Source: Mobula hypostoma (taxonomy: Eukaryota). From it: DNA of 64,000 nucleotides. Numbering within the stretch: position 1 is the stretch's first letter; every line of letters starts with the position of its first letter. The DNA lies in NCBI RefSeq assembly GCF_963921235.1, contig NC_086108.1:10540001-10604000 (forward strand). Reading direction: 5' to 3'. The notes beneath the pieces are model-generated. The model ran no database searches. It was not told the DNA's origin and saw nothing but the letters and a program-made list of their open reading frames with translations. The position numbers and the translations under genes are program-made. Shown one piece after another: positions 9,572-64,000 of this stretch.

Positions 9572-11125
9572 AATGGTCTGCATCCTAGAGTGCTTAAGGA
9601 AGTAGCCCAAGAAATAGTGGATGCATTAGTGAAAATTTTTCAAAACTCGTTAGATTCGGGACTAGTTCCTGAGGATTGGAGGGTGGCTAATGTAACCCCA
9701 CTTTTTAAAAAAGGAGGGAGAGTGAAACCGGGGAATTATAGACCGTCGGCCTAACGTCGGTGGTGGGGAAACTGCTGGAGTCAGTTATCAAGGATGTGAT
9801 AACAGCACATTTGGAAAGCGGTGAAATGGTCGGACAAAGTCAGCATGGATTTGTGAAAGGAAAATCATGTCTGACGAATCTCATAGAATTTTTTGAGGAT
9901 GTAACTAGTAGAGTGGATAGGGGAGAACCAGTGGATGTGGTATATTTGGATTTTCAAAAGGCTTTTGACAAGGTCCCACACTGGAGATTAGTGTGCAAAC
10001 TTAAAGCACACGGTATTGGGGGTAAGGTACTGGTGTGGTTGGAGAATTGGTTAGCAGACAGGAAGCAAAGAGTGGGAATAAACGGGACCTTTTCAGAATG
10101 GCAGGCGGTGACTAGTGGGGTACCGCAAGGCTCAGTGCTGGGACCCCAGTTGTTTACAATATATATTAATGACTTGGATGAGGGAATTAAATGCAGCATC
10201 TCCAAGTTTGCGGATGACACGAAGCTGGGTGGCAGTGTTAGCAGTGAGGAGGATGCTAAGAGGATGCAGGGTGACTTGGATAGGTTGGATGAGTGGGCAA
10301 ATTCATGGCAGATGCAATTTAATATGGATAAATGTGAAGTTATCCACTTTGGTGGCAAAAATAGGAAAACAGATTATTATCTGAATGGTGGCCGATTAGG
10401 AAAAGGGGAGGTGCAACGAGACCTGGGTGTCATTATACACCAGTCATTGAAAGTGGGCATGCAGGTACAGCAGGCGGTGAAAAAGGCGAATGGTATGCTG
10501 GCATTTATAGCAAGAGGATTCGAGTACAGGAGCAGGGAGGTACTACTGCAGTTGTACAAGGCCTTGGTGAGACCACACCTGGAGTATTGTGTGCAGTTTT
10601 GGTCCCCTAATCTGAGGAAAGACATCTTTGCCATAGAGGGGGTACAAAGAAGGTTCACCAGATTGATTCCTGGGATGGCAGGACTTTCATATGAAGAAAG
10701 ACTGGATGAACTGGGCTTGTACTCGTTGGAATTTAGAAGATTGAGGGGGGATCTGATTGAAACGTATGAGATCCTAAAGGGATTGGACAGGCTAGATGCA
10801 GGAAGATTGTTCCCGATGTTGGGGAAGTCCAGAACGAGGGGTCACAGTTTGAGGATAGAGGGGAAGCCTTTTAGGACCGAGATTAGGAAAAACTTCTTCA
10901 GACAGAGAGTGGTGAATCTGTGGAATTCTCTGCCACAGGAAACTGTTGAGGCCAGTTCATTGGCTATGTTTAAGAGGGAGTTAGATATGGCCCTTGTGGC
11001 TACAGGGGTCAGGGGGTATGGAGGGAAGGCTGGGGCGGGGTTCTGAGTTGGATGATCAGCCATGATCATAATAAATGGCGGTGCAGGCTTGAAGGGCCGA
11101 ATGGCCTACTCCTGCGCCTATTTTC
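9572..11125 (+). mobile_element. 5'-truncated young CR1 LINE (same subfamily as 46063-49994)
   Basis: Near-identical to the 3' ~1.55 kb of the intact element; ends in (TTTCTATG)n tail at ~11102-11125. Confidence 0.95.
9760..11046 (+). pseudogene. CR1 ORF2 reverse transcriptase, truncated (428 aa open)
   Basis: RT motifs YLDFQKAFDKV, SGVPQGSVLGP, KFADD; no endonuclease; small frame-disrupting lesion near 9745. Confidence 0.9.
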
Positions 11126-11506
11126 TATGTTTCTATGTTTCTATATTCTTATGGGGGGCTGGTAATTTAAAATAGACTTGTGAAGGAACATCTTCACCCA
11201 GATGGAGGCGAATCTTGGGAATTCCCTGCCCCAGGCTTTGTAGAGGCTAGTTACTGGGGGATTTAAAGAGGAAGTCAGTAATCTCTTGGAAGATCAGGGA
11301 TTGAGGGTGATGGAGAACTCAGACAGATGGGAAGATAAGACTAGGGTAGATCAGACATGATCATTTTGAATGGTGGTGCATGTCTGAGGGGCTGAGTGGC
11401 CTACATCTATTGTCTGTGAACTTATTGAATTGTCAAACAGGCTCAAGGATGATATTGATTCCTTATAAATGCAGGACATTCCTGTAAGATCAATGCACAA
11501 TGATAT

Positions 11507-14169: not shown

Positions 14170-17100
14170 ACGGCCTGCCTTTGAAAAAGCCATGCTGACT
14201 ATTCCTAATCATATTATGCCTCTCCAAATGTTCATAAATCCTGCCTCTCAGGATCTTTTCCATCAACTTACCAACCACTGAAGTAAGACTCACCTGTCTA
14301 TAATATCCTGGGCTATCTCTACTCCCTTTCTTGAATAAGGGAACAACATCTGCAACCCTCTAATCCTCCAGAGCCTCCCCCGTCCCCATTGATCATTGCC
14401 AGAGGCTCAGCAATCTCCTCCCTCGCCTCCCACAATAGCCTGGGAATCATATTCTCTGGTCCCAGAGACTTATCCAACTTGATGCTTTCCGAAAGCTCCA
14501 GCACATCCCCTTTCTTAATGTCTACATGCTCAAGCTTTTCAGTCTGCTGTAAGTCATCCCTACAATTGCCAAGATCCTTTTCCATAGTGAACACTGAAGC
14601 AAATTATTCATTAAGTACCTCAGCTATCTCCTCCAGTTCCATACACGCTTTTCCACTGTCACACTCAATTGGTCCAATTCTCTCACGTCTTATCCTTTTG
14701 CTCTTCAATTACTTGTAGAATGCCTTGGGGTTTTCTTTAATCCTGTTCGCCAAGGCCTTCTCATGGCCCCTTCTGGCTCTCCTAATTTCATTCTTAATCT
14801 CCATCCTGCTAGCCTTATAATCTTCTAGATCTCTATCATTATCTAGTTTTTTGAACCTTTTGTAATCTTTTCTTTTCTTCCTCACTAGATTTACAACAAC
14901 CTTTGTACACCATGGTTCCTGTACCCTACCATCCTTTCCCTGTCTTATTGGAACGTACCTATGCAGACTGCCACACTAATATCCAGATTTCTACCGTACA
15001 TTTCCCTGAGAACACCTGTTCCCAATTTCTGGTTTCAAGTTCCTGCCTGATAGCTTCATATTTCCCCTTAATCCAATTAAACGCTTTCCTAACTCATCTG
15101 TTCCTGTACCTCTCCAGTGCTATGGTAAAGGAAATAGAATTGTGATCACTATCCCCAAAATGCTCTCCTACTGAAAGACCTGACACCTGACCAGGTTCAT
15201 TTCCCAATACCAGATCAAGTACAGCCTCTTCTCTTGTAGGCTTATCTATATAATGTGTCAGGAAACCTTCTTGAGCACACCTAACCAACTCCACCCCATC
15301 TAAACCCCTTGCTCTAGGAAGATGCTAATCAATATTTGGGGAATTAACATCTCCCACCACAACAACCCTGTTATCATTTCACCTTTTCAGAATCTGTCTC
15401 CCTATCTGCTCCTCAATGTCCCTGTTACTATTGTGTGGTCTATAAAAAACACCCAGTAGAGTTATTGACCTCTTCCTGTTTCTAACTTGCACCCACAGAA
15501 ACTCGGTAGACAATCCCTCCATGACTTCCTCCTTTTTTGTAGCTGTGACACTATCTCTGATCAGCAGTGCCACGCCTCCACCTCTTTTACCTCCCTCCCT
15601 CCCTGTCCTTCCTGAAACATCTAAAGCCTGGCACTCTAAGTAACCATTCCTGCCCCTGAGCCATCCAAGTCTCTGTAATGGCCACAACATCACAGCTCCA
15701 AGTACTGATCCACGCTCTAAGCTCATCTGCTTTGTTCATGATGTTTCTTGCACTAAAATAGACACATCTCAAACCATTGGTCTGAGCGTATCCCTTCTCT
15801 ATCACCTGCCTATCCTCCCTCTCGCACTGTCTCCAAGCTTTCTCTGTATGTGAGCTAACCACCCCTTCCTCTGTCTCTTCAGTTCAGTTCCAACTCCCAG
15901 CAATTCTCGTTTAAACTCTCCTTAATAGCCTCCTTAATAATTTTCAAACGATTGTGGAACGAAGTCTAGAAAAAAAAAGACATTTACATGTGCTTCCTGG
16001 ATTACGAACAAGCTTTTGACTGAGTCAATCATGAACAGCTGGTCAATTGCCTGAACTCACTGGGGCTGGATGGGAAAGATGTTCGACTGATTGCGAGTCT
16101 GTACTGGCATCAGAAGGCAGTAATAAGAACTAGTGGTGGAAATTCACTGGAAGTTGAGATCCAAAAAGGGGTTCGCTAGGGCTGCATTATCTCCCCTTTA
16201 TTATTTAACCTTTACTCAGAGGTAATCTTCAGGGTGTTGAACGATGAAGCTGGTGTCCAAATTGGTGGAGTGACGGTGAACAACTTGAGGTATGCAGATA
16301 ATTCAGTGTTGTTAGCTGAGACTGGGGATGAGTTACTCAGAATAGTAGATAAGATAAATGCTGAAGGTGAATGATTTGGAATGAAAATAAATACTGCAAA
16401 GACGAAGATGATGATAGTATCACGGAAGAAAGAAGTCCCCAAAATCAGTAGCAAAATTAACGGCATAGGTATAGAGAAAGTCAAGAAGTTTGTGTACTTG
16501 GGACAGATGGTCAAAGAGGATGGGAAATGTGATACAGAAATTAGATGAAGAATTGAGATTGCAAGATCAACGTTCTGGAGCCTGAGTGACGTGCTGTGTG
16601 GCAAGAGGTTGGACTTTGGGCTGCGATGGAGAATTTGGAAATGCTACGCCTGGAGCAGTCTGTTGTATGGTGTCGAATTGTGGAGCTTATGCAAGGAAGC
16701 GCAACGACGACTGGAGGCATTTGAAATGTGGTGTTTAAGGAGAATGCAGAAAATCAGATGGGTGATGAAGGTCAGTAATATGGAAGTGTTGAAGAGAGTG
16801 AGGGGAGAAAAGGAGTTGCTGAAGAATGTGCAGAAAAGGAAGCCGGAATATGCCGGGCACTTGTTAAGAGGTGGTGGACTGCAGAATTGTTATTGGAAGG
16901 GACGATAGGAGGAAAGAGGGAAAGAGGAAAGCAGCGAACGACTTGATACGATAATGTGAGGCAATGGACTGAGTTGAGTTATGCTGAGGCCAGAAAAAGA
17001 GCGCAAAATCGAAGAAAATGAAGGTGCATAGCCGCCAGCCACGGATTCAGGACGGCACCCACTGACTGACAGAATAGCCTGAGCAAATCTCCTTGCCAGG

Positions 17101-17975
17101 ATATTGGTCCACCTCAGATTCAAGTACAACCCGTCCTTTTTGTACAGGTCACGCCTGCCCCAAAGGAGGCCCCAGTGATCCAGAAATCTGAATCCCTGCC
17201 CCCTGCTCCGTTCCCTCAGCCACACATTTAACCCCCACCTCACTCTATTCCTATACTGTTGTGTGGCATAGGCAGTAATCCCGAGATTACTTTATTTGAG
17301 GTCCTGCTTCTCAACTTCTTTCCTAACTCTCTGTAGTCTGTTTTCAGGATCTCCTCCCTTTTCCTACTTATGTCATTGTTACCAATATGTACCATGACCT
17401 CTGGCTGTTCACCTTCCCACTTCAGGATATCGTGGACGCGATCAGAAACATCCCGGACCCTGGCCCCTAGAGGCAAACTACCATCCACGTCTCTTTCCTG
17501 CGTCCACAGAACTGCCTGTCTAACCCCCTAACTATAGAGTCCCCTATCACTGCTGCCTTCCTCCTTTCCCTACCCTTCTGAACCACAGAACCAGACTCTA
17601 TGCCAGAGACGCGGCCACTGTTGCTTCACCTACCAACAGTACTCAAACAGGAGTACTTATTGTTAAGGGAGACAGCCACAGGGGCACCCTCTAGTATCTG
17701 ACTCTTGCCCTTCCCTCTCCTGACTGTTACCCGCTTGTCTGACTCCCGAGGCCCCTGTGTGACTACTTGCCTATAGCTCCTCTCTATCACCTCCACACTT
17801 TCCCTGACCAGATGAAGGTCATCGAGCTGCATCTCCAGTTCCCTAACCCGGTCCCTAAGGAGCTGCAGCTCGACGCACCTGGTGCAGATGTGGTCGTCCG
17901 GGAGGCTGGGAGTCTCCCAGACATACCACATCCGACACCCTGTACAGAGCACCAGCCTCAGACATACTTCCTAAC
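14170..17975 (-). mobile_element. Decayed CR1 LINE (ORF1, endonuclease and start of RT), 3' part missing, split by an RTE insertion
   Basis: ORF1 pieces CTGCRMW..HICTRCVELQLLRDRVRELE, VHIGNNDI, FLDHW..DGL; ORF2 pieces CVYFSARNIMNKADEL, AITETW, FYRP, SDHN; many stops and frameshifts. Confidence 0.9.
15932..17072 (+). mobile_element. RTE-clade LINE, 5'-truncated, decayed RT
   Basis: CFLDYEQAFD, KGVR*GCIISPLLFNLYSE, NNLRYAD, FVYLG, LLYGVELWSL..RLEAFEMWCLRRM; TSD AATAGCCT at 15924-15931 and 17073-17080. Confidence 0.9.
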
Positions 17976-28823: not shown

Positions 28824-29445
28824 CAGACATCCCACCTCTCCCGTAACTTCCGGGAGTCTCCCGCATATTAATAGTGGCTCCCTGATGCCCGCAAATTATA
28901 TACAATGTCCCGGAAATTGATTTTTTTTGAGAGCGAGCGTGAGAGAACGTGCGAGAAAGAGCGAGAAAGCGAGCGCAAGAGCGAGAGAGCGAGCGCGAGT
29001 GAGAGCGACCGCGAGAGAGAGAGCGAGAGCAAGAGCGAGAGAGGGAGCGCGAGTGAGAGTGACCGCGAACAAGAGAGCGAGAGAGTTCCAAAAAAAGTCA
29101 GAGTAGCAGAGTGTTCCAAAAAAAGAAAATATAAAACGTACATCACCCCAGACTACCCTAAAGTCTACCCCTGCCTGATAGGGCTCAAAATAATGACAGT
29201 GTTGCTCACTGCACTGTCTACAACAGTGACTTTTCTATTGCCCATGGTGGGTAAAGACTGTAAAAGACATGTTGAGGTGAGTTTAACAGGTGTCATTCGT
29301 TCATTAGCATAGCTAACGTTATTTAAACTAGCTGGCTGGCTGCTAAGGAGCTACTTTATTGCAGATGTCACATCTCTCCCGGAAGTCTCCTGCAAATTGA
29401 TGGTGCTACCTCCCTGAAATGAGTTTTTGCAGGGTGGGATGTCTG
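28824..29445. mobile_element. Non-autonomous TIR element (hAT-like), 622 bp
   Basis: 13-bp TIR CAGACATCCCACC / GGTGGGATGTCTG; 8-bp TSD TGTGTGTG / TGTGTGTT; internal GA/GC-rich simple repeat. Confidence 0.85.
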
Positions 29446-45255: not shown

Positions 45256-46160
45256 GCGGGACCATCGCAGCAGGAGGAGGAGCGAGGGGCTCGGGAGATC
45301 GCTGAGTGCCGGGAAGCAGCTGAGGAGCTGAGGTGAGTGTGCTTTAAAAGGAGCGTGGAGGGCAACTGAAGGGTTAAGCAGAGTGTTGATTAGAGGGAGT
45401 GAGTACTTGAGATAATTGGCAAGGACAAATAAAAGGAGGGGTAACTAAAGAGGAGCGGCCAGCGTGCGAGTGGCTCAGGGTAGGAGTGGAGTTTTGAGGC
45501 TTTGACTCGAGAGGCTTCGGCGAGCAGAGGCTGAGGACGAGCCTGCTCCCAGTGAGGTCAGGCCGGGTAAGTTTCTTTAATTAATTAAATTAACTTAGGA
45601 GTAGGTAATGGAGGCAGCAGTTAGGGCAGTCGAGTGCTCCGTTTGCAGTAGGTGGGGAGTCAGGGCGAGTACAATTGTCCCTGATGACTACACCTGTGAA
45701 AGGTGCATCCAGCCGCAGCTCCTGACAAACCGAGTTAGGGAACTGGAGCTGGAGCTGGATGGACTTCAGATCATTTGGGAGTCAGAGGCAGAAATAGACA
45801 GGAATTACAGGGAGATAGTCGTCCCTAAGAGTCAAGAAGCAGGCAGCTGGGTGACTGTCAGGTGAGGGAACGGGAATAGACAGAATGAGCAGAGCACCCC
45901 AGTGGCCGTTCGCATCAATAATAAGTATACCATTTTGGATACTGTTGGTGGGGACAACCTACCAGGGACAAGTTGCAGTGGTCACTTCTCTGGCACCGAG
46001 ACTGGACCCTCAGCTCAGAAGGGAAGGAGGGAAAAGAGGAGAGCAGTAGTGATAGGGGATTCATAGAAACATAGAAACATAGAAAATAGGTGCAGGAGTA
46101 GGCCATTCGGCCCTTCGAGCCTGCACCGCCATTTATTATGATCATGGCTGATCATCCAAC

Positions 46161-49100
46161 TCAGAACCCCGCCCCAGCCTTCCCTCCATACCCCCTGACC
46201 CCTGTAGCCACAAGGGCCATATCTAACTCCCTCTTAAACATAGCCAATGAACTGGCCTCAACAGTTTCCTGTGGCAGAGAATTCCACAGAGTCACCACTC
46301 TCTGTGTGAAGAAGTTTTTCCTAATCTCGGTCCTAAAAGGCTTCCCCTCTATCCTCAAACTGTGGCCCCTCGTTCTGGACTTCCCCAACATCGGGAACAA
46401 TCTTCCTGCATCTAGCCTGTCCAATCCCTTTAGGATTTTATACGTTTCAATCAGATCCCCCCTCAATCTTCTAAATTCCAATGAGTACAAGCCCAGTTCA
46501 TCCACTCTTTCTTCATATGAAAGTCCTGCCATCCCAGGAATCAATCTGGTGAACCTTCTTTGTACTCCCTCTAAGGCAAGGATGGCTTTCCTCAGATTAG
46601 GGGACCAAAACTGCACACAATACTCCAAGTGTGATCTCACCAAGGCCTTGTACAACTGCAGTAGTACCTCCCTGCTCCTGTACTCGAATCCTCTCCCTAT
46701 AAATGCCAGCATACCATTCGCCTTTTTCACCGCCTGCTGTATCTGCATGCCCACTTTCAATGACTGGTGTATAATGACACCCAGGTCTCGTTGCACCTCC
46801 CCTTTTCCTAATCGGCCACCATTCAGATAATAATCTGTTTTCCTATTTTTGCCACCAAAGTGGATAACTTCACATTTATCCACATTAAATTGCATCTGCC
46901 ATGAATTTGCCCACTCACCCAACCTATCCAAGTCACCCTGCATCCTCTTAGCATACTCCTCACAGCTAACACTGCCACCCAGCTTCGTGTCATCCGCAAA
47001 CTTGGAGATGCTGCATTTAATTCCCTCATCCAAGTCATTAATATATATTGTAAACAACTGGGGTCCCAGCACTGAGCCTTGCGGTACCCCACTAGTCACC
47101 GCCTGCCATTCTGAAAAGGTCCCGTTTATTCCCACTCTTTGCTTCCTGTCTGCTAACCAATTCTCCACCCACACCAATACCTTACCCCCAATACCGTGTG
47201 CTTTAAGTTTGCACACTAATCTCCTGTGTGGGACCTTGTCAAAAGCCTTTTGAAAATCCAAATATACCACATCCACTGGTTCTCCCTTATCCACTCTACT
47301 AGTTACATCCTCAAAAAATTCTATGAGATTCATCAGACATGATTTTCCTTTCACAAATCCATGCTGACTTTGTCCGATCATTTCACCGCTTTCCAAATGT
47401 GCTGTTATCACATCCTTGATAACTGACTCCAGCAGTTTCCCCACCACTGACGTTAGGCTAACTGGTCTATTATTCCCTGGTTTCTCTCTCCCTCCTTTTT
47501 TAAAAAGTGGGGTTACATTAGCCACCCTCCAATCCTCAGGAACTAGTCCAGAATCTAACGAGTTTTGAAAAATTATCACTAATGCGTCCACTATTTCTTG
47601 GGCTACTTCCTTAAGCACTCTAGGATGCAGACCATCTGGCCCTGGGGATTTATCTGCCTTCAATCCCTTCAATTTACCTAACACCACTTCCCTACTAACA
47701 TGTATTTCGCTCAGTTCCTCCATCTCACTGGACCCTCTGTTCCTTACTATTTCTGGAAGATTATTTATGTCCTCCTTAGTGAAGACAGAACCAAAGTAAT
47801 TATTCAATTGGTCTGCCATGTCCTTGCTCCCCATAATCAATTCACCTGTTTCTGTCTGCAGGGGACCTACATTTGTCTTTACCAGTCTTTTCCTTTTTAC
47901 ATATCTATAAAAGCTTTTACAGTCCGTTTTTATGTTCCCTGCCAGTTTTCTCTCATAATCTTTTTTCCTCTTCCTAATTAAGCCCTTTGTCTTCCTCTGC
48001 TGAACTCTGAATTTCTCCCAGTCCTCAGGTGAGCCACTTTCTCTGGCTAATTTGTATGCTACTTCTTTGGAATTGATACTATCCCTAATCTCTCTTGTCA
48101 GCCACGGGTGCACTACCTTCCTTGATTTATTCTTTTGCCAAACTGGGATGAACAATTGTTGTAGTTCATCCATGCAACCCTTAAATGCTTGCCATTGCAT
48201 ATCCACCGTCAATCCTTGAAGTGTCATTTGCCAGTCTATCTTAGCTAATTCACGTCTCATACCTTCAAAGTTACCCCTCTTTAAGTTCAGAACCTTTGTT
48301 TCTGAATTAACTATGTCACTCTCCATCTTAATGAAGAATTCCACCATATTATGGTCACTCTTACCCAAGGGGCCTCTCACGACAAGATCGCTAATTAACC
48401 CTTCCTCATTGCTCAAAACCCAGTCCAGAATAGCCTGCTCTCTAGTTGGTTCCTCGACATGTTGGTTCAAAAAACCATCCCGCATACATTCCAAGAAATC
48501 CTCTTCCTCAGCACCTTTACCAATTTGGTTCACCCAATCTACATGTAGATTGAAGTCACCCATTATAACTGCTGTTCCTTTATTGCACACATTTCTAATT
48601 TCCTGTTTAATACCATCTCTGACCTCACTACTACTGTTAGGTGGCCTGTACACAACTCCCACCAGCGTCTTCTGCCCCTTAGTGTTACGCAGCTCTACCC
48701 ATATCAATTCCACATCTTCCCGGCTTATGTCCTTCCTTTCTATTGCGTTAATCTCTTCTTTAACCAGCAACGCCACCCCACCTCCCCTTCCTTCATGTCT
48801 ATCCCTCCTGAATATTGAATATCCCTGAATGTTGAGCTCCCATCCCTGGTCACCCTGGAGCCATGTCTCTGTGATCCCAACTATATCATAATCATTAATA
48901 ACAATCTGCACTTTCAATTCATCCACCTTATTACGAATGCTCCTTGCATTGACACACAAAGCCTTCAGGCACTCTTTTACAACTCTCTTAGTCCTTATAC
49001 AATTATGCTGAAAAGTGGCCCTTTTTAATGCTTGCCCTGGATTTGTCAGCCTGCCACTTTTACTTTTCTCCTTTGTACTTTTTGCTTCTACCCTCACTTT

Positions 49101-49193
49101 ACACCCCTCTGTCTCTCTGCACTGGTTCCCATCCCCCTGTTGTGAACTAACCTCCTCTCGCCTAGCCTCTTTAATTTGATTCCCACCCCCCAA
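46161..49193 (-). CDS. CR1 ORF2: AP-endonuclease + reverse transcriptase (1010 codons open; annotated start is TTG, not ATG)
   Basis: EN motifs CVNARS, GITETW, VYRPP, MGDFN, SDHN; RT motifs YLDFQKAFDKV, GVPQGSVLGP, FADD. Confidence 0.95.
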   Translation of the reverse strand: MGGGNQIKEARREEVSSQQGDGNQCRETEGCKVRVEAKSTKEKSKSGRLTNPGQALKRATFQHNCIRTKRVVKECLKALCVNARSIRNKVDELKVQIVINDYDIVGITETWLQGDQGWELNIQGYSIFRRDRHEGRGGGVALLVKEEINAIERKDISREDVELIWVELRNTKGQKTLVGVVYRPPNSSSEVRDGIKQEIRNVCNKGTAVIMGDFNLHVDWVNQIGKGAEEEDFLECMRDGFLNQHVEEPTREQAILDWVLSNEEGLISDLVVRGPLGKSDHNMVEFFIKMESDIVNSETKVLNLKRGNFEGMRRELAKIDWQMTLQGLTVDMQWQAFKGCMDELQQLFIPVWQKNKSRKVVHPWLTREIRDSINSKEVAYKLARESGSPEDWEKFRVQQRKTKGLIRKRKKDYERKLAGNIKTDCKSFYRYVKRKRLVKTNVGPLQTETGELIMGSKDMADQLNNYFGSVFTKEDINNLPEIVRNRGSSEMEELSEIHVSREVVLGKLKGLKADKSPGPDGLHPRVLKEVAQEIVDALVIIFQNSLDSGLVPEDWRVANVTPLFKKGGREKPGNNRPVSLTSVVGKLLESVIKDVITAHLESGEMIGQSQHGFVKGKSCLMNLIEFFEDVTSRVDKGEPVDVVYLDFQKAFDKVPHRRLVCKLKAHGIGGKVLVWVENWLADRKQRVGINGTFSEWQAVTSGVPQGSVLGPQLFTIYINDLDEGIKCSISKFADDTKLGGSVSCEEYAKRMQGDLDRLGEWANSWQMQFNVDKCEVIHFGGKNRKTDYYLNGGRLGKGEVQRDLGVIIHQSLKVGMQIQQAVKKANGMLAFIGRGFEYRSREVLLQLYKALVRSHLEYCVQFWSPNLRKAILALEGVQRRFTRLIPGMAGLSYEERVDELGLYSLEFRRLRGDLIETYKILKGLDRLDAGRLFPMLGKSRTRGHSLRIEGKPFRTEIRKNFFTQRVVTLWNSLPQETVEASSLAMFKRELDMALVATGVRGYGGKAGAGF

Positions 49194-49198
49194 CCATT

Positions 49199-49994
49199 CT
49201 AGTTTAAAGTCACCTCAGTAGCCCCCGCTAATCTCCCTGCCAGGATATTGGTCCCCCTAGGATTCAAGTGTAACCCGTCCTTTTTGTACAGGTCATGCCT
49301 GCACCAAAAGAGGTCCCAATGATCCAAAAACTTGAATCCCTGCCCCCTGCTCCAATCCCTCAGCCACGCATTTATCCTCCACCTCATCGCATTCCTACTC
49401 TCACTGTCACGTAGCACAGGCAGTAATCCCGAGATTACTACCTTTGCGGTCCTTTTTCTCAACTCCCTTCCCAGCTCCCCATATTCTCCCTTCAGGACCT
49501 CATCCCTTTTCCTACCTATGTCATTGGTACCTATATGTACCACGACCTCTGGCTCCTCACCCTCCCACTTCAGGATATCTTGGACACGATCAGAAATATC
49601 CCGGACCCTGGCACCAGGGAGGCAAACTACCATCCGGGTCTCTGGACTGCATCCACAGAATCGCCTATCTGACCCCCTTACTATCGAGTCCCCTATCACA
49701 ACTGCCCTCCTCTTCCTTGCCCTACCCTTCTGAGTTACAGGGCCGGACTCTGTGCCAGAGGCACGGCCACTGTCGCTTCCCCCGGGTAAGCTGTCCCCTC
49801 CAACAGTACTCAAACAGGAGTACCTGTTGTTAAGGGGCACAGCCACCGGGGTACTCCCTATTACCTGACTCTTCCCCTTCCCCCTCCTAACCGTGACCCA
49901 CTTGTCTGCCTCCCGTGGCCCCGGCGTGACCACCTGCCTGCAACTCCTCTCTATCATCTCTTCACTCTCCCTGACCAGACAAAGGTCATCGAGC
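49199..49994 (-). CDS. CR1 ORF1, 5'-truncated, SGNH-esterase-like domain
   Basis: VVIGDSIVRG, CLPGA, VHIGTNDI, DGLHLN; zinc-finger N-terminus is missing. Confidence 0.85.
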
Positions 49995-50488
49995 TAGGGG
50001 GATTCGATAGTTAAGGGGATAGATAAGAGGTTCTGTGGAAGAGATCGAGAATCCCGGATGGTCTGTTGCCTCCCTGGTGCCAAGGTCCGCGATATCTCGG
50101 ATCGAGTTCTCAGTATTCTCAAGAGGGAGGGTGAGCAGCTGGATGTTGTGGTCCTTGTAGGGACCAATGACACAGATAGGAAGGAGGAGGAGGTCCTGCA
50201 AAGAGAGTTTAGGGAGTTAGGTGCAAAGTTGAAGGACTGGACCTCCAGGGTTGCAATCTCAGGATTGCTACCCGTGCCACGTGCTAGTGAGGCTAGAAAT
50301 AGGAAGATTATGCAGCTAAATACATGGCTAAGGAGATGGTGCAGGAGGGAGGGCTTCATGTTTATGGACAATTGGGCTTTGTTCCAGGGAAGGTGGGACC
50401 TGTTCCGACGGGACGGTCTGCACCTGAACTGGAGGGGGACTAACGTCCTTGCGGGTAGATTTGCTAGTGCTACTCTGGGGGGTTTAAA

Positions 50489-53420
50489 CTAGATTTGCAG
50501 GGGGAGGGGAACCAGAGTGTTAGAGCAGGTAGTGAGGTGAAGGAGGATAAAGGTCATGCCAGGACTGCATGTATGCTCAGTAATCAAAGGTTTGTACATG
50601 ATAGAAATGTTCTCAGGTGCACCTATTTCAATGCAAGGAGTATTGTGGGTAAGGCAGATGATCTTAGGGCATAGATTGGCATCTGGGATTATGACATTAT
50701 TGCTATTAGCGAGACTTGGTTGCAGGAGGGGCAGGAATGGCAGCTTAATGTTCTGGGGTTCTGTTGGTTCAGACGTGACAGAGGAGGAGGGATGAAAGGG
50801 GGCGGAGTGGCATTACTAGTCAGGGAAAAATATCACAGCTGCACATAGACAGGACAGCCCGGAGGGCTTGTCTACAGAGGCCATATGGATGGAGCTGAGG
50901 AATGGGAAAGGTGTGACCACACTAATAGGGTTGTATTATAGACCGCCCAATAGTCAGAGAGAACTGGAGGAGCAAATCGTTAGAGAGATAGCAGACCGAT
51001 ATAAGAAACAGAAAGTTGTAATAGTAGGGGATTATAACTTTCCACATATTGACTGGGACTCCCACACGGTGAAACGGCTAGATGGCTTGGAGTTTGTCTA
51101 ATGTGTTCAGGAAAGTTTTCTAATTCAATATATAGAGGTACCTACGAGAGAGGATGCAATACTTGATCTCCTATTAGGGAACCAGACTGGTCAGGTGACA
51201 GAAGTATGTGTAGGCGACCATTTTGGGTCCAGTGACCATAATGTCATTAGTTTCAAGTTAATTATGGATAAGAATATGTCTGGTCCTCAAGTTCTAAATT
51301 GGAGAAGGGCCAATTTTGTGGAAATGAGGAAGGATCTAGGAAGAGTGGATTGGGACAAGTTGTTTTCTGGCAAGGATGTGTTCAGTAAGCGGAAGGCCTT
51401 CAAAGGCGAAATTTTGAGAGTGCAGAGTTTGCATGTTCCTGCCAGGATTAAAGGCAAAGTTAATAGGCATAGGAAATCTTGGTTTTCAAGGGATATTGGC
51501 GATCTGGTTAAGAAAAAGAGAGAGGTGTATAGCAGGTATAGGCAACTAAGAACAAATGAGGTACTTGAAGAGTATAGGAAATGTAGGAAAATACTAAAGA
51601 AGGAAATCAGGAAGGCAAAAAGAAGACATGAGGTTGCTTTGGCAGATAATGTGAAGGTAAACCCGAAGGGTTTCTACAAGTATATTAAGAGTAAAAAGAT
51701 AGTAAGGGACAAAATTGGTCCTTTAGAAGATCAGAGTGGTCGTCTATGTGTGGAGCTTCACAAGATGGGGAAGATCTTAAACAGTTTTTTTGCATCAGTA
51801 TTTACTCTGGAAACTGGCATAGCGTATATGGAAGGAAGGGAAACAAACAGTAGTGTCATGGAACATATAGAGATTAAAGAGGAGGAGGTGCTTGTTGCCT
51901 TATAGTGAATAAAGGTAGATAAATCCTCCGGGCCTGACATGATATTTCCTTGGACCTTGAGAGAGACTAGTGCAGAAATTGTAGGGGCCCTGGCAGGAAT
52001 ATCTAAAATGTCCTTAGCCACGGGTGCAGTGCCGAAGGATTGGAGGGTAGCACATGTTGTTCCGTTGTTTAAAAAAGGCTCCAAAAGTAAACCAGGTAAT
52101 TACAGGCCGGTGAGCCTGACATCAGTAGTAGGTAAATTATTGGATAGTTTTCTGAGAGATTGGATAGACAAGTATTTGGACAGCCAAGGGCTGATTAAAG
52201 ATAGTCAGCATGGCTTTGTACATGGTAGATCATGTTTAATGAATCTTGTAGAGTTTTTCGAGGAGGTTACCAAGAAAGTAGATGAAGGAAAGGCTGTGAA
52301 TGTTGTCTACATGGACTTTAGTAAGGCCTTTGACAAGGTCCCACATGGGAGGTTAGTTCAGAAGGTTCAGACACTAGGTATCCATGGAAAGGCGGTAAAC
52401 TGGATTCAAAATTGGCTGTGTGGGAGAAGACAGAGAGTGGTAGTGGATGATTGCTTCTCAGACTGGAGGCCTGTGACTAGTGGTGTACCTCAGGGATCTG
52501 TGCTGGGACCATTGTTGTTTGTTGTCTATATCAATGATCTAGATGATAATGTGGTAAATTGGATCAGCAAGTTTGCTGATGACACTATGACTGGAGGCGT
52601 TGTGGACAGCGAGGAAGGCTTTCAAAGCTTGCAGAGGGATCTGGACCAACTGGAAAAATGGGCCAGAAAATGGCAGATGGAATTTAGTGCAGACAAGTGT
52701 GAGGTGTTGCAGTTTGGAAGGACAAATCAAGGTAGGACTTGCACAGTAAATGGTAGGGCACTGAGGAGTGTGGAGGAACAAAGGGATCTGGGGGTTCAGA
52801 TACATAATTACCTGAAAGTGGCGTCACAGGTAGACAAGGTTGTAAAGAAGGCTTTTGTCATCCTGGCATTCATAAATCAAAGTATTGAGTATAGGAGTTG
52901 GGATGTTATGGTGAGGTTGTATAAAACATTGGTGAGGCCAACTTTGGAGTATTGTGTGCAGTTCTGGTCACCTAATTATAGGAAGGATATCAGTAAGATT
53001 GAAAGAGTGCAGAGAAGATTTACTAGGATGTTGCCGGGTCTTCAGGAGTTGAGTTACAGGGAAAAATTGAACAGGTTAGGCCTTTATTCCTTGGAGCGTA
53101 GAAGAATAAGGGGGGATTTGATAGAGGTTTACAAAATTATGAGGGGTATAGACAGAGTAAATGCGAGTAGGCTCTTTCCACTTAGATTAGGAGAGATAAA
53201 TATGAGAGGACATGGCTTAAGGGTGAAGGGGGAAAGGTTTAGGGGGAACATTAGGGGGAACTTCTTCACTCAGAGAGTGGTGGGAGTGTGGAATGAGCTG
53301 CCATTTGACTGGTAATTGCGGGCTTACTCTTAAGTTTTAAGAATAAATTGGATAGGTACATGGATGGGAGAGGTCTGGAGGGTTATGGACTGGATGCAGG
53401 TCAATGGGACTAGTGGGATA
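50489..53420 (+). pseudogene. CR1 ORF2 (EN+RT), disrupted by stops and frameshifts; longest open piece 51939-53315
   Basis: YFNARSIVGK, YYRPPN, VGDYNFP, SDHN, YMDFSKAFDKV, PQGSVLGP, FADD. Confidence 0.92.
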
Positions 53421-53579
53421 AAGTTTCGGCACAGACTAGAAGGTCCAAATGGCCTGTGTTCTGTGCTGTAGTGTTCTATCATTTTGGTCTTACTGACATT
53501 GAGTGAGAGGTTGTTATGACACCACTCAGCCACATTGTTTATTAATAATATTTACAAGGTACAGAGATAGGATGGGTTG

Positions 53580-63895: not shown

Positions 63896-63924
63896 TCTGA
63901 AAATTTCAACCCCCAACTTTATAA

Positions 63925-64000
63925 AAACATAGAAACATAGAAAATAGGTGCAGGAGTAGGCCATTCGGCCCTTCGAGCCTGCACCGCCATTTATTATGAT
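63925..64000 (-). mobile_element. 3' end of another young CR1 copy, running off the window
   Basis: Matches 46067-46142 (CATAGAAACATAGAAAATAGGTGCAGGAGTAGGCC...). Confidence 0.92.

Follow-up and report, generated by a model that had tools for sequence, protein, structure and literature searches.

A slippery heptamer conserved at the ORF1–ORF2 junction of esterase-type CR1 retrotransposons: a putative signal of programmed −1 frameshifting

Introduction

A frameshift is already precedented in print for two groups of retroelements: TRE5-A and TRE3-A of Dictyostelium, APE-type LINEs with two ORFs, which are stated to need a −1 shift for the expression of ORF2 (PMC5911963), and two-ORF Penelope-like elements, belonging to a different class of retroelements, the ORF1 of which is described as separable by a frameshift with a pseudoknot (PMC8557442). 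Some Penelope-like elements are reported to encode an esterase (PMC3905857). The LINEs L1 and SART1 are represented by a bicistronic mRNA, in which ORF2 is entered near the ORF1 stop (PMC5009743, PMC3708506). The same domain layout as in the elements considered here, as well as a vertebrate range, is characteristic of vertebrate CR1 subgroup 7 with ORF1 of type IVB, containing a zinc finger/leucine zipper and an esterase (PMC4120745, PMC3905857); the word ‘frameshift’ is absent from the main text of these two papers.

Outside LINEs, heptamers of the same class and phase as the one described below are known from coronaviruses (U_UUA_AAC), retroviral gag–pol and PEG10, where a structural protein is fused to a polymerase (PMC5009743). 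In the protein-stimulated −1/−2 shift in nsp2 of PRRSV, no RNA structure is involved, and a short conserved motif is located 11 nt downstream of the shift site (PMC7939443). G-quadruplexes are reported to stimulate shifting in synthetic constructs, a natural case being unknown but anticipated in the same source, published in 2016 (PMC5009743).

In the present work, a stretch of 64,000 nucleotides of the Mobula hypostoma genome (contig NC_086108.1, positions 10,540,001 to 10,604,000; hereinafter, the window), containing two nested CR1 elements, was analysed. Features of the window are listed in Table 1.

Table 1. Features of the nested CR1 elements and of the ORF1–ORF2 junctions in the window
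Feature	Position	Strand	Remark
Host CR1 ORF1, 5' part, zinc-finger/coiled-coil region, decayed	45608..46062	+	tblastn with ray ORF1 proteins covers 45608–46063
Host ORF1, 3' part, SGNH esterase, ends Leu-Asn-stop	49995..50492	+	PF13472, 42 bits (cut-off 32.9)
Host ORF2, APE endonuclease and RT, disabled	50624..53315	+	first stop 50672, frameshift near 50830
Young 5'-truncated CR1 inserted in host ORF1	46063..49994	−	ORF2 frame open over 1017 codons
Target-site copies flanking the young CR1	left 46053–46062, right 49995–50005		imperfect duplication of 10–11 bp
TAG closing the ORF2 (−1) frame 5' of the heptamer	50465..50467	+	
Overlapping second in-phase heptamer G_GGT_TTA	50480..50486	+	absent from the young element, not general
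Slippery heptamer T_TTA_AAC in ORF1 phase (GGT TTA AAC TAG)	50483..50489	+	exact in 10/12 junctions
ORF1 stop TAG, directly 3' of the heptamer	50490..50492	+	
G-run, candidate stimulator	50500..50509	+	starts 10 nt after the heptamer
Stop-free −1-frame linker from heptamer to endonuclease, 47 codons	50483..50623	+	0 stops versus 2 and 8 in the other frames
In-frame linker ATG, weak context	50573..50575	+	out-of-frame ATGs before it at 50556 and 50569
Young-element junction, heptamer and TAG	49199..49208	−	
Third CR1 junction	15906..15915	−	intact heptamer 15915–15909, GAG as the decayed stop, disturbed linker frame

Results

Organization of the nested elements

The window contains a CR1 element on the plus strand (the host), into the ORF1 of which a younger, minus-strand CR1 is inserted. 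Both are assigned to the CR1-clade LINEs with an esterase-type ORF1. The SGNH esterase domain PF13472 was found above the cut-off in ORF1 of the host and of the young element; domains PF03372, PF14529 and PF00078 were found in ORF2 of the young element, and PF00078 in ORF2 of the host, the endonuclease of which aligns to that of the young element. Among named proteins, those of stingrays are nearest to the host ORF1 (72–78% identity), and ORF1 of the young element is 93% identical to a Mobula protein; identity to avian RT-domain gene models is 40–49%. The 3' end of CR1 elements is represented by short 8-bp repeats, and poly(A) is absent. An 8-bp tandem repeat is present at the 3' end of the young element, and one related unit was found near position 53480 in the host.

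A preliminary interpretation of this DNA (the sequence-only reading) had placed the host in a second CR1 subfamily, divergent from the young one, which is confirmed by the identity between the two elements: 61% of amino acids and 71% of nucleotides in the esterase, and 60% and 65%, respectively, in the RT region. Identical codons are used at 54 of 94 shared residues in the esterase and at 122 of 251 in the RT region.

The host copy is dead, since its −1 frame contains a TAG (50672–50674) immediately 3' of DDLRA, followed in ORF2 by a frameshift and further stops. The stop at 50672 is absent from most related Logan contigs. The segment 50465–50680 accordingly belongs to a dead relic that retains the junction signal.

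Junction of ORF1 and ORF2 in the window

The host ORF1 ends, as had been reported, with GGT TTA AAC TAG, the heptamer lying in phase at the coordinates given earlier. The preceding account of the −1 frame also proved accurate: from the TAG at 50465, this frame is stop-free into endonuclease motif I (50624), with the same translation.

Matches to the 10-mer of heptamer and stop with at most one mismatch were found eight times in the window, versus 4.4 expected; by itself, the 10-mer is near the chance level there, and the signal is carried by phase and position. An exact match at 29322 was rejected as a junction, having neither ORF1 nor endonuclease homology. In the three ORFs scanned, in-phase heptamers of the XXXYYYZ type occur only at the two ORF1 ends, and none was found in the 1018 codons of the young ORF2 frame.

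Conservation of the junction at the codon level

Metagenome contigs were scanned with an esterase-motif pattern excluding the junction, which gave at least 69 loci. Among the loci listed, 12 of 69 matched the ORF1 profile A1; L028, a GC-rich SGNH protein not belonging to CR1, was dropped, L023 and L060, the contigs of which end before the junction, were left out, and nine usable junctions remained. Junctions were located by a relaxed motif in a segment of 60 nt, and the match was at the ORF1 end in all nine loci. For five of them, the nearest of the named proteins tried are bird gene models, and L011 is remote from birds and rays alike. Three window copies and these nine metagenome loci, taken from those listed and several of them bird-like, formed a set of 12 junctions, which are partly related by descent and for which all counts were made without a tree.

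The exact heptamer TTTAAAC is preceded by six different codons. The junction Leu is encoded by TTA in all 12 cases (L019, with an extra T, being ambiguous), Asn is encoded by AAC in 11, and the base before TTA is T in 11. The stop after the heptamer is TAG in seven junctions and TGA in two (L054 and L042), and is absent from three decayed copies. In the control motif NxWL of the same sequences, Leu uses five codons, and Asn is encoded by AAT in 7 and AAC in 4 of 11 cases; TTA accounts for 14% of the 168 Leu codons of these ORFs. In a pairwise codon test of eight sequences (28 pairs), from which upstream indels or missing ORF1 excluded L016, L019, L066 and the third copy of the window, the same codon was used at 251 of 552 shared residues and at 40 of 129 Leu residues.

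Coding for Leu-Asn fails to explain the heptamer, because its codons are fixed while nearby synonymous sites are largely saturated. The sequence-only reading had asked whether the heptamer could be kept merely through this coding; the near-invariance of TTA and AAC, set against the Leu codons elsewhere, answers in the negative. Its suggestion that the junction signal is under selection is supported by conservation at the nucleotide level beyond the coding need. Judging by this conservation, the signal is under nucleotide-level selection and common to cartilaginous-fish and bird-like CR1.

Related CR1 DNA was not found in viral contigs (no CR1 among 56 loci by HMM). In prokaryote genome contigs, the first scan gave no match, and the second gave 19 loci with two weak HMM matches of the SGNH type, both in cyanobacterial records; plasmid and phage collections contained no match.

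C-terminal ends of ORF1 proteins

Broad alignments were too divergent for pattern scans. Among 184 ORF1 homologues, 127 end 18–45 residues past the last esterase motif. These comprise 114 distinct ends: LN in 65, QGN in 9, KN in 1, internal xKN in the same register, followed by a longer tail, in 6, and none of these in 33. All nine GN-ending proteins end with QGN, as do 11 of 14 close relatives of one QGN protein; Atlas clusters for the QGN type belong mostly to Chordata, which is a lead only.

For the residue before the terminal LN, a codon ending in T is possible in 64 of 65 ends, spanning 12 amino acids. Residues incapable of such a codon were thus found once in 65 at this position, 27 and 20 times at the next two positions, and 4 and 4 times at the two after; against an average background of 16%, p = 1.8 × 10^−4, a value that ignores kinship.

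Heptamers U_UUA_AAC, G_GGA_AAC and A_AAA_AAC are described as being among the shiftiest (PMC5009743). Read back from the amino acids alone, QGN and xKN ends would fit the second and the third of them. DNA of elements of the QGN and xKN types was not found in the viral contigs scanned.

Linker and start codons of ORF2

In seven of the nine junctions that reach the endonuclease, the −1 frame is stop-free from the heptamer onwards over 33–90 codons, the two exceptions being decayed copies with apparent indels; other frames over the same linkers contain 1–10 stops. Upstream of the heptamer, the −1 frame is closed within 2–6 codons in 9 of 12 junctions, and ORF2 entry is therefore pinned to the heptamer region.

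No start codon of ORF2 itself precedes the endonuclease in the young element or in L011; the host, L016, L053, L054, L066 and the stork models contain AUGs. In the ORF2 frame of the young element, Met first occurs at residue 218, which lies within the endonuclease, past its motifs at 89 and 116; in L011, no Met precedes the endonuclease. An in-frame ATG is located 2 nt after the ORF1 stop in L016, L053 and L066 (3 of 12 junctions), and Met is at linker codon 61 in L054. In a subfamily of stork CR1 gene models, Met is near-fixed 13 aa before the endonuclease (Met in 37 cases versus Val in 4, among 119 proteins). The position of the linker Met varies among lineages and copies (codons 4, 16, 18, 28, 30, 43, 61 and 82). 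In 17 stork and 2 stingray gene models, FKL...G was found 69–108 residues before the endonuclease, which by its sequence is the −1 reading of the heptamer. A linker AUG alone does not refute frameshifting, because stork models with a near-fixed Met keep this reading.

The ATG at 50573, indicated previously as preceding the endonuclease in the host, is indeed present in the −1 frame. Logan contigs of runs X1, X5, X6 and X7 were aligned at 80% likeness; their depth over 50554–50610 is low, and they are silent on expression and strand. Base 50575 is A in 2132 of 2154 of the depth in X1 (21 contigs), 35 of 35 in X5 and 3078 of 3176 in X6; in X7, it is A in 1340 of 7421 among the rows listed, and ATG may be the majority form there. 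Whether this ATG is fixed or private had been left to be checked: it is not fixed, with ATA predominating in three of four runs, while a private mutation is not proven. The host copy departs from the aligned contigs here, since the two bases after 50575 differ from the window in 95–100% of the depth in all four runs.

Elements downstream of the heptamer

The distance from the heptamer to the start of the G-run is 10 nt in 10 of 12 junctions and 11 nt in the other two. The seventh −1-frame codon is GGG in 11 of 12, while in ORF2 of the young element GGG encodes 31 of 94 Gly residues; a requirement for Gly in the linker may contribute to this conservation. In both the host and the young element, the G-richness score at the G-run is in the top 1% of downstream segments. 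The sequence-only reading had considered both the G-run and the motif (L/Q)GxGNQ to be kept; the first G, encoded by GGG, is kept across vertebrate-type junctions, and NQ is not.

In structure-stimulated −1 frameshifting, the heptamer is followed at 5–9 nt by a stable hairpin. In the three window junctions, the MFE of the sequence 3' of the heptamer was no better than that of shuffled sequences (z from −0.7 to +1.7, under a model that does not include pseudoknots), and a downstream hairpin was rejected as the stimulator on this basis. No shared long-range pairing partner for the G-run was found. The G-run might speculatively act as a protein-binding site or a G-quadruplex, each role being a candidate only.

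Discussion

Taken together, the phase and conservation of the heptamer and the open linker suggest slippage and a fusion protein, the G-run being a candidate stimulator, and esterase-type CR1 LINEs probably express ORF2 by programmed −1 frameshifting, with the formation of an ORF1–ORF2 fusion. Most ribosomes would read ORF1 to UUA AAC and terminate at the adjoining stop, giving ORF1p; a minority would slip back one base on U_UUA_AAC, bypass the stop and traverse the variable linker into the endonuclease and RT. The predicted product is an ORF1p–ORF2p fusion of roughly 1300 residues. The pause would probably be due not to a hairpin but to slow termination at the adjacent stop together with the G-run at +10, and the signal, consisting of heptamer, stop and G-run, would probably include an unusual, structure-free stimulator.

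Compared with these junctions, TRE5-A and TRE3-A belong to another host kingdom and have another type of ORF1, CR1 being distinguished by the esterase ORF1 and the succession of heptamer, stop and G-run. From viral and LTR-element −1 shifting, the CR1 signal differs in the lack of a predicted 3' hairpin (pseudoknots being outside the model), in the stop adjoining the heptamer and in its non-LTR host. The spacing of the G-run resembles that of the PRRSV motif, but the latter is C-rich and bound by nsp1beta and PCBP (PMC7939443), whereas the CR1 motif is G-rich and has no known binding protein. In L1 and SART1, unlike in the proposed scheme, ORF2p is a free protein, and no slippery heptamer is described in the available parts of PMC5009743 and PMC3708506. 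A wider proposal is tentative and rather doubtful: that esterase CR1s from cartilaginous fish to birds, with distant relatives carrying G_GGA_AAC or A_AAA_AAC, make RT solely as a Gag-Pol-like fusion by means of a structure-free signal with the G-run at +10, which could be a natural G-quadruplex or bound by a host protein.

Termination–reinitiation would yield free ORF2p, as in SART1 and L1, by a restart at an AUG or near-cognate codon a few bases past the ORF1 stop, the heptamer being a termination aid or a relic. An open linker would be expected under reinitiation too. This route would also be in line with the ATG located 2 nt past the stop in three of the 12 junctions and the TTG that occupies this place in the host, with the G that ends the sixth −1-frame codon in 10 of 12, with the AUG-independent initiation described for L1 ORF2 (PMC5009743) and the UAAUG coupling described for a LINE (PMC3708506). 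However, the codon at the restart place varies (ATG, TTG, TCG, TGG, AGG, AGC, CTC), with no conserved start near the stop, and reinitiation needs neither an XXXYYYZ heptamer nor a fixed preceding T nor switches of heptamer class. Upstream UGGGA motifs vary in their distance and are missing from 4 of 12 junctions, and a fixed reinitiation motif of this kind was rejected. Reinitiation in place of frameshifting is accordingly considered improbable. A combination of both routes, with ancestral frameshifting and free ORF2p produced additionally from AUG in some lineages (bird-like TAG-GT-ATG, the stork linker Met, perhaps the host ATG), is rather unlikely, although AUG-bearing lineages, in which it may operate, do retain the heptamer and the open linker: the scatter of Met positions is what would be expected by chance in a linker that is open and evolves fast, and the ATG at 50573 is in a weak context behind two out-of-frame ATGs. 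The two-route scheme overlaps with the frameshift explanation and does not exclude frameshifting.

Two further explanations dispense with recoding. If the esterase needed a C-terminal Leu-Asn, the heptamer would be a by-product of shared ancestry, and Leu-Asn is in fact invariant in alignments of 24 and 32 sequences; nevertheless, TTA is found in every junction against its low share among Leu codons, nearby synonymous sites are largely saturated, the residue in front of Leu-Asn is free to vary, yet is nearly always one with a codon that can end in T, and Gly or Lys replaces Leu in other ORF1 groups. Protein constraint alone is largely refuted and hardly credible as the sole cause. The motif could also be a splice acceptor (TAG) or another RNA or DNA element unrelated to decoding. 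Stork gene models join upstream exons close to the junction, and a non-decoding element may have a role in transcription or packaging. The splice acceptor was rejected: no AG is kept in L054 and L042, where the stop is TGA, the upstream sequence is purine-rich, and the motif keeps codon phase. An explanation of this non-decoding kind is very improbable as a whole, and programmed −1 frameshifting is preferred.

An overlap or frameshifting may already be mentioned in the CR1 papers of Haas 1997 and Kajikawa 1997, on the chicken and turtle elements, or in Repbase notes. Apart from these original 1997 papers, Kapitonov and Jurka 2003 and Repbase notes, the literature searched, so far as its text was accessible, contains no description of CR1 frameshifting and does not address how the often AUG-less CR1 ORF2 is made. 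Searches for the CR1 junction in the available published supplements (PMC4316615 among them) gave only unrelated 3'-end matches or nothing, and the text and supplement of PMC8665684 gave no match.

CR1 elements are the most abundant repeats in many reptiles and cartilaginous fish. In chicken, CR1 is likewise described as the most abundant repeat of the genome (PMC11835228). The host copy, though itself dead, adds phylogenetic support for the junction signal. A hairpin-free shift signal offers a simple and directly testable lead to a new class of stimulators. If frameshifting is true for CR1, it would explain the mis-annotated ‘FKL...’ gene models and would change the calling of intact CR1 copies and the design of assays; the enzyme would be joined to ORF1p in a fixed proportion, which is the situation in retroviruses but not in L1.

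CR1 copies in the window

The ORF1 of the host CR1, a decayed plus-strand element, is interrupted at the esterase GDS motif by the 5'-truncated young CR1 in the opposite orientation, and copies of the target site flank the insertion. The window contains additional young-family copies, also truncated at the 5' end and 97.6% identical, indicating that this family was recently active. An element related to the young family has an ORF1 that breaks off about five codons short of the ORF1–ORF2 junction. The stray exact match to the 10-mer of heptamer plus stop is probably a chance occurrence.

CR1-related features of the window
Feature	Position	Strand	Remarks
Young-family copy, 5'-truncated	9573-11144	+	identity 97.6%
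Young-family copy, 5'-truncated	63918-64000	-	identity 97.6%
ORF1 of young-family relative	17075-17960	-	81% nt over 777 bp
Exact TTTAAACTAG	29322-29331	+	no ORF1 or endonuclease homology detected around match
Target-site copies flanking young CR1	46053-46062 and 49995-50005		imperfect 10-11 bp target duplication

CR1 proteins and junctions in other records

In the stingray gene models P0004 and P0006, one of which bears the name of a host gene, the esterase continues in frame via FKL, the -1 reading of the heptamer, into the linker and endonuclease; these models are either mis-annotated CR1 copies or gene-model joins. The CR1 proteins P0010 and P0192 are filed under bacterial names (Pseudomonas and Carnobacterium), apparently owing to host contamination.

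In the distant esterase ORF1s P0128, P0133, P0150, P0155, P0178, P0120, P0103 and P0082, xFL or xFF occurs close to the terminal Leu-Asn register; as read from proteins, this would be compatible with U_UUU_UUA or U_UUU_UUY as the heptamer.

Bird-like CR1 junctions of the metagenome contig loci L016, L053 and L066 contain an in-frame ATG 2 nt past the ORF1 stop, possibly a second, lineage-specific way to ORF2.
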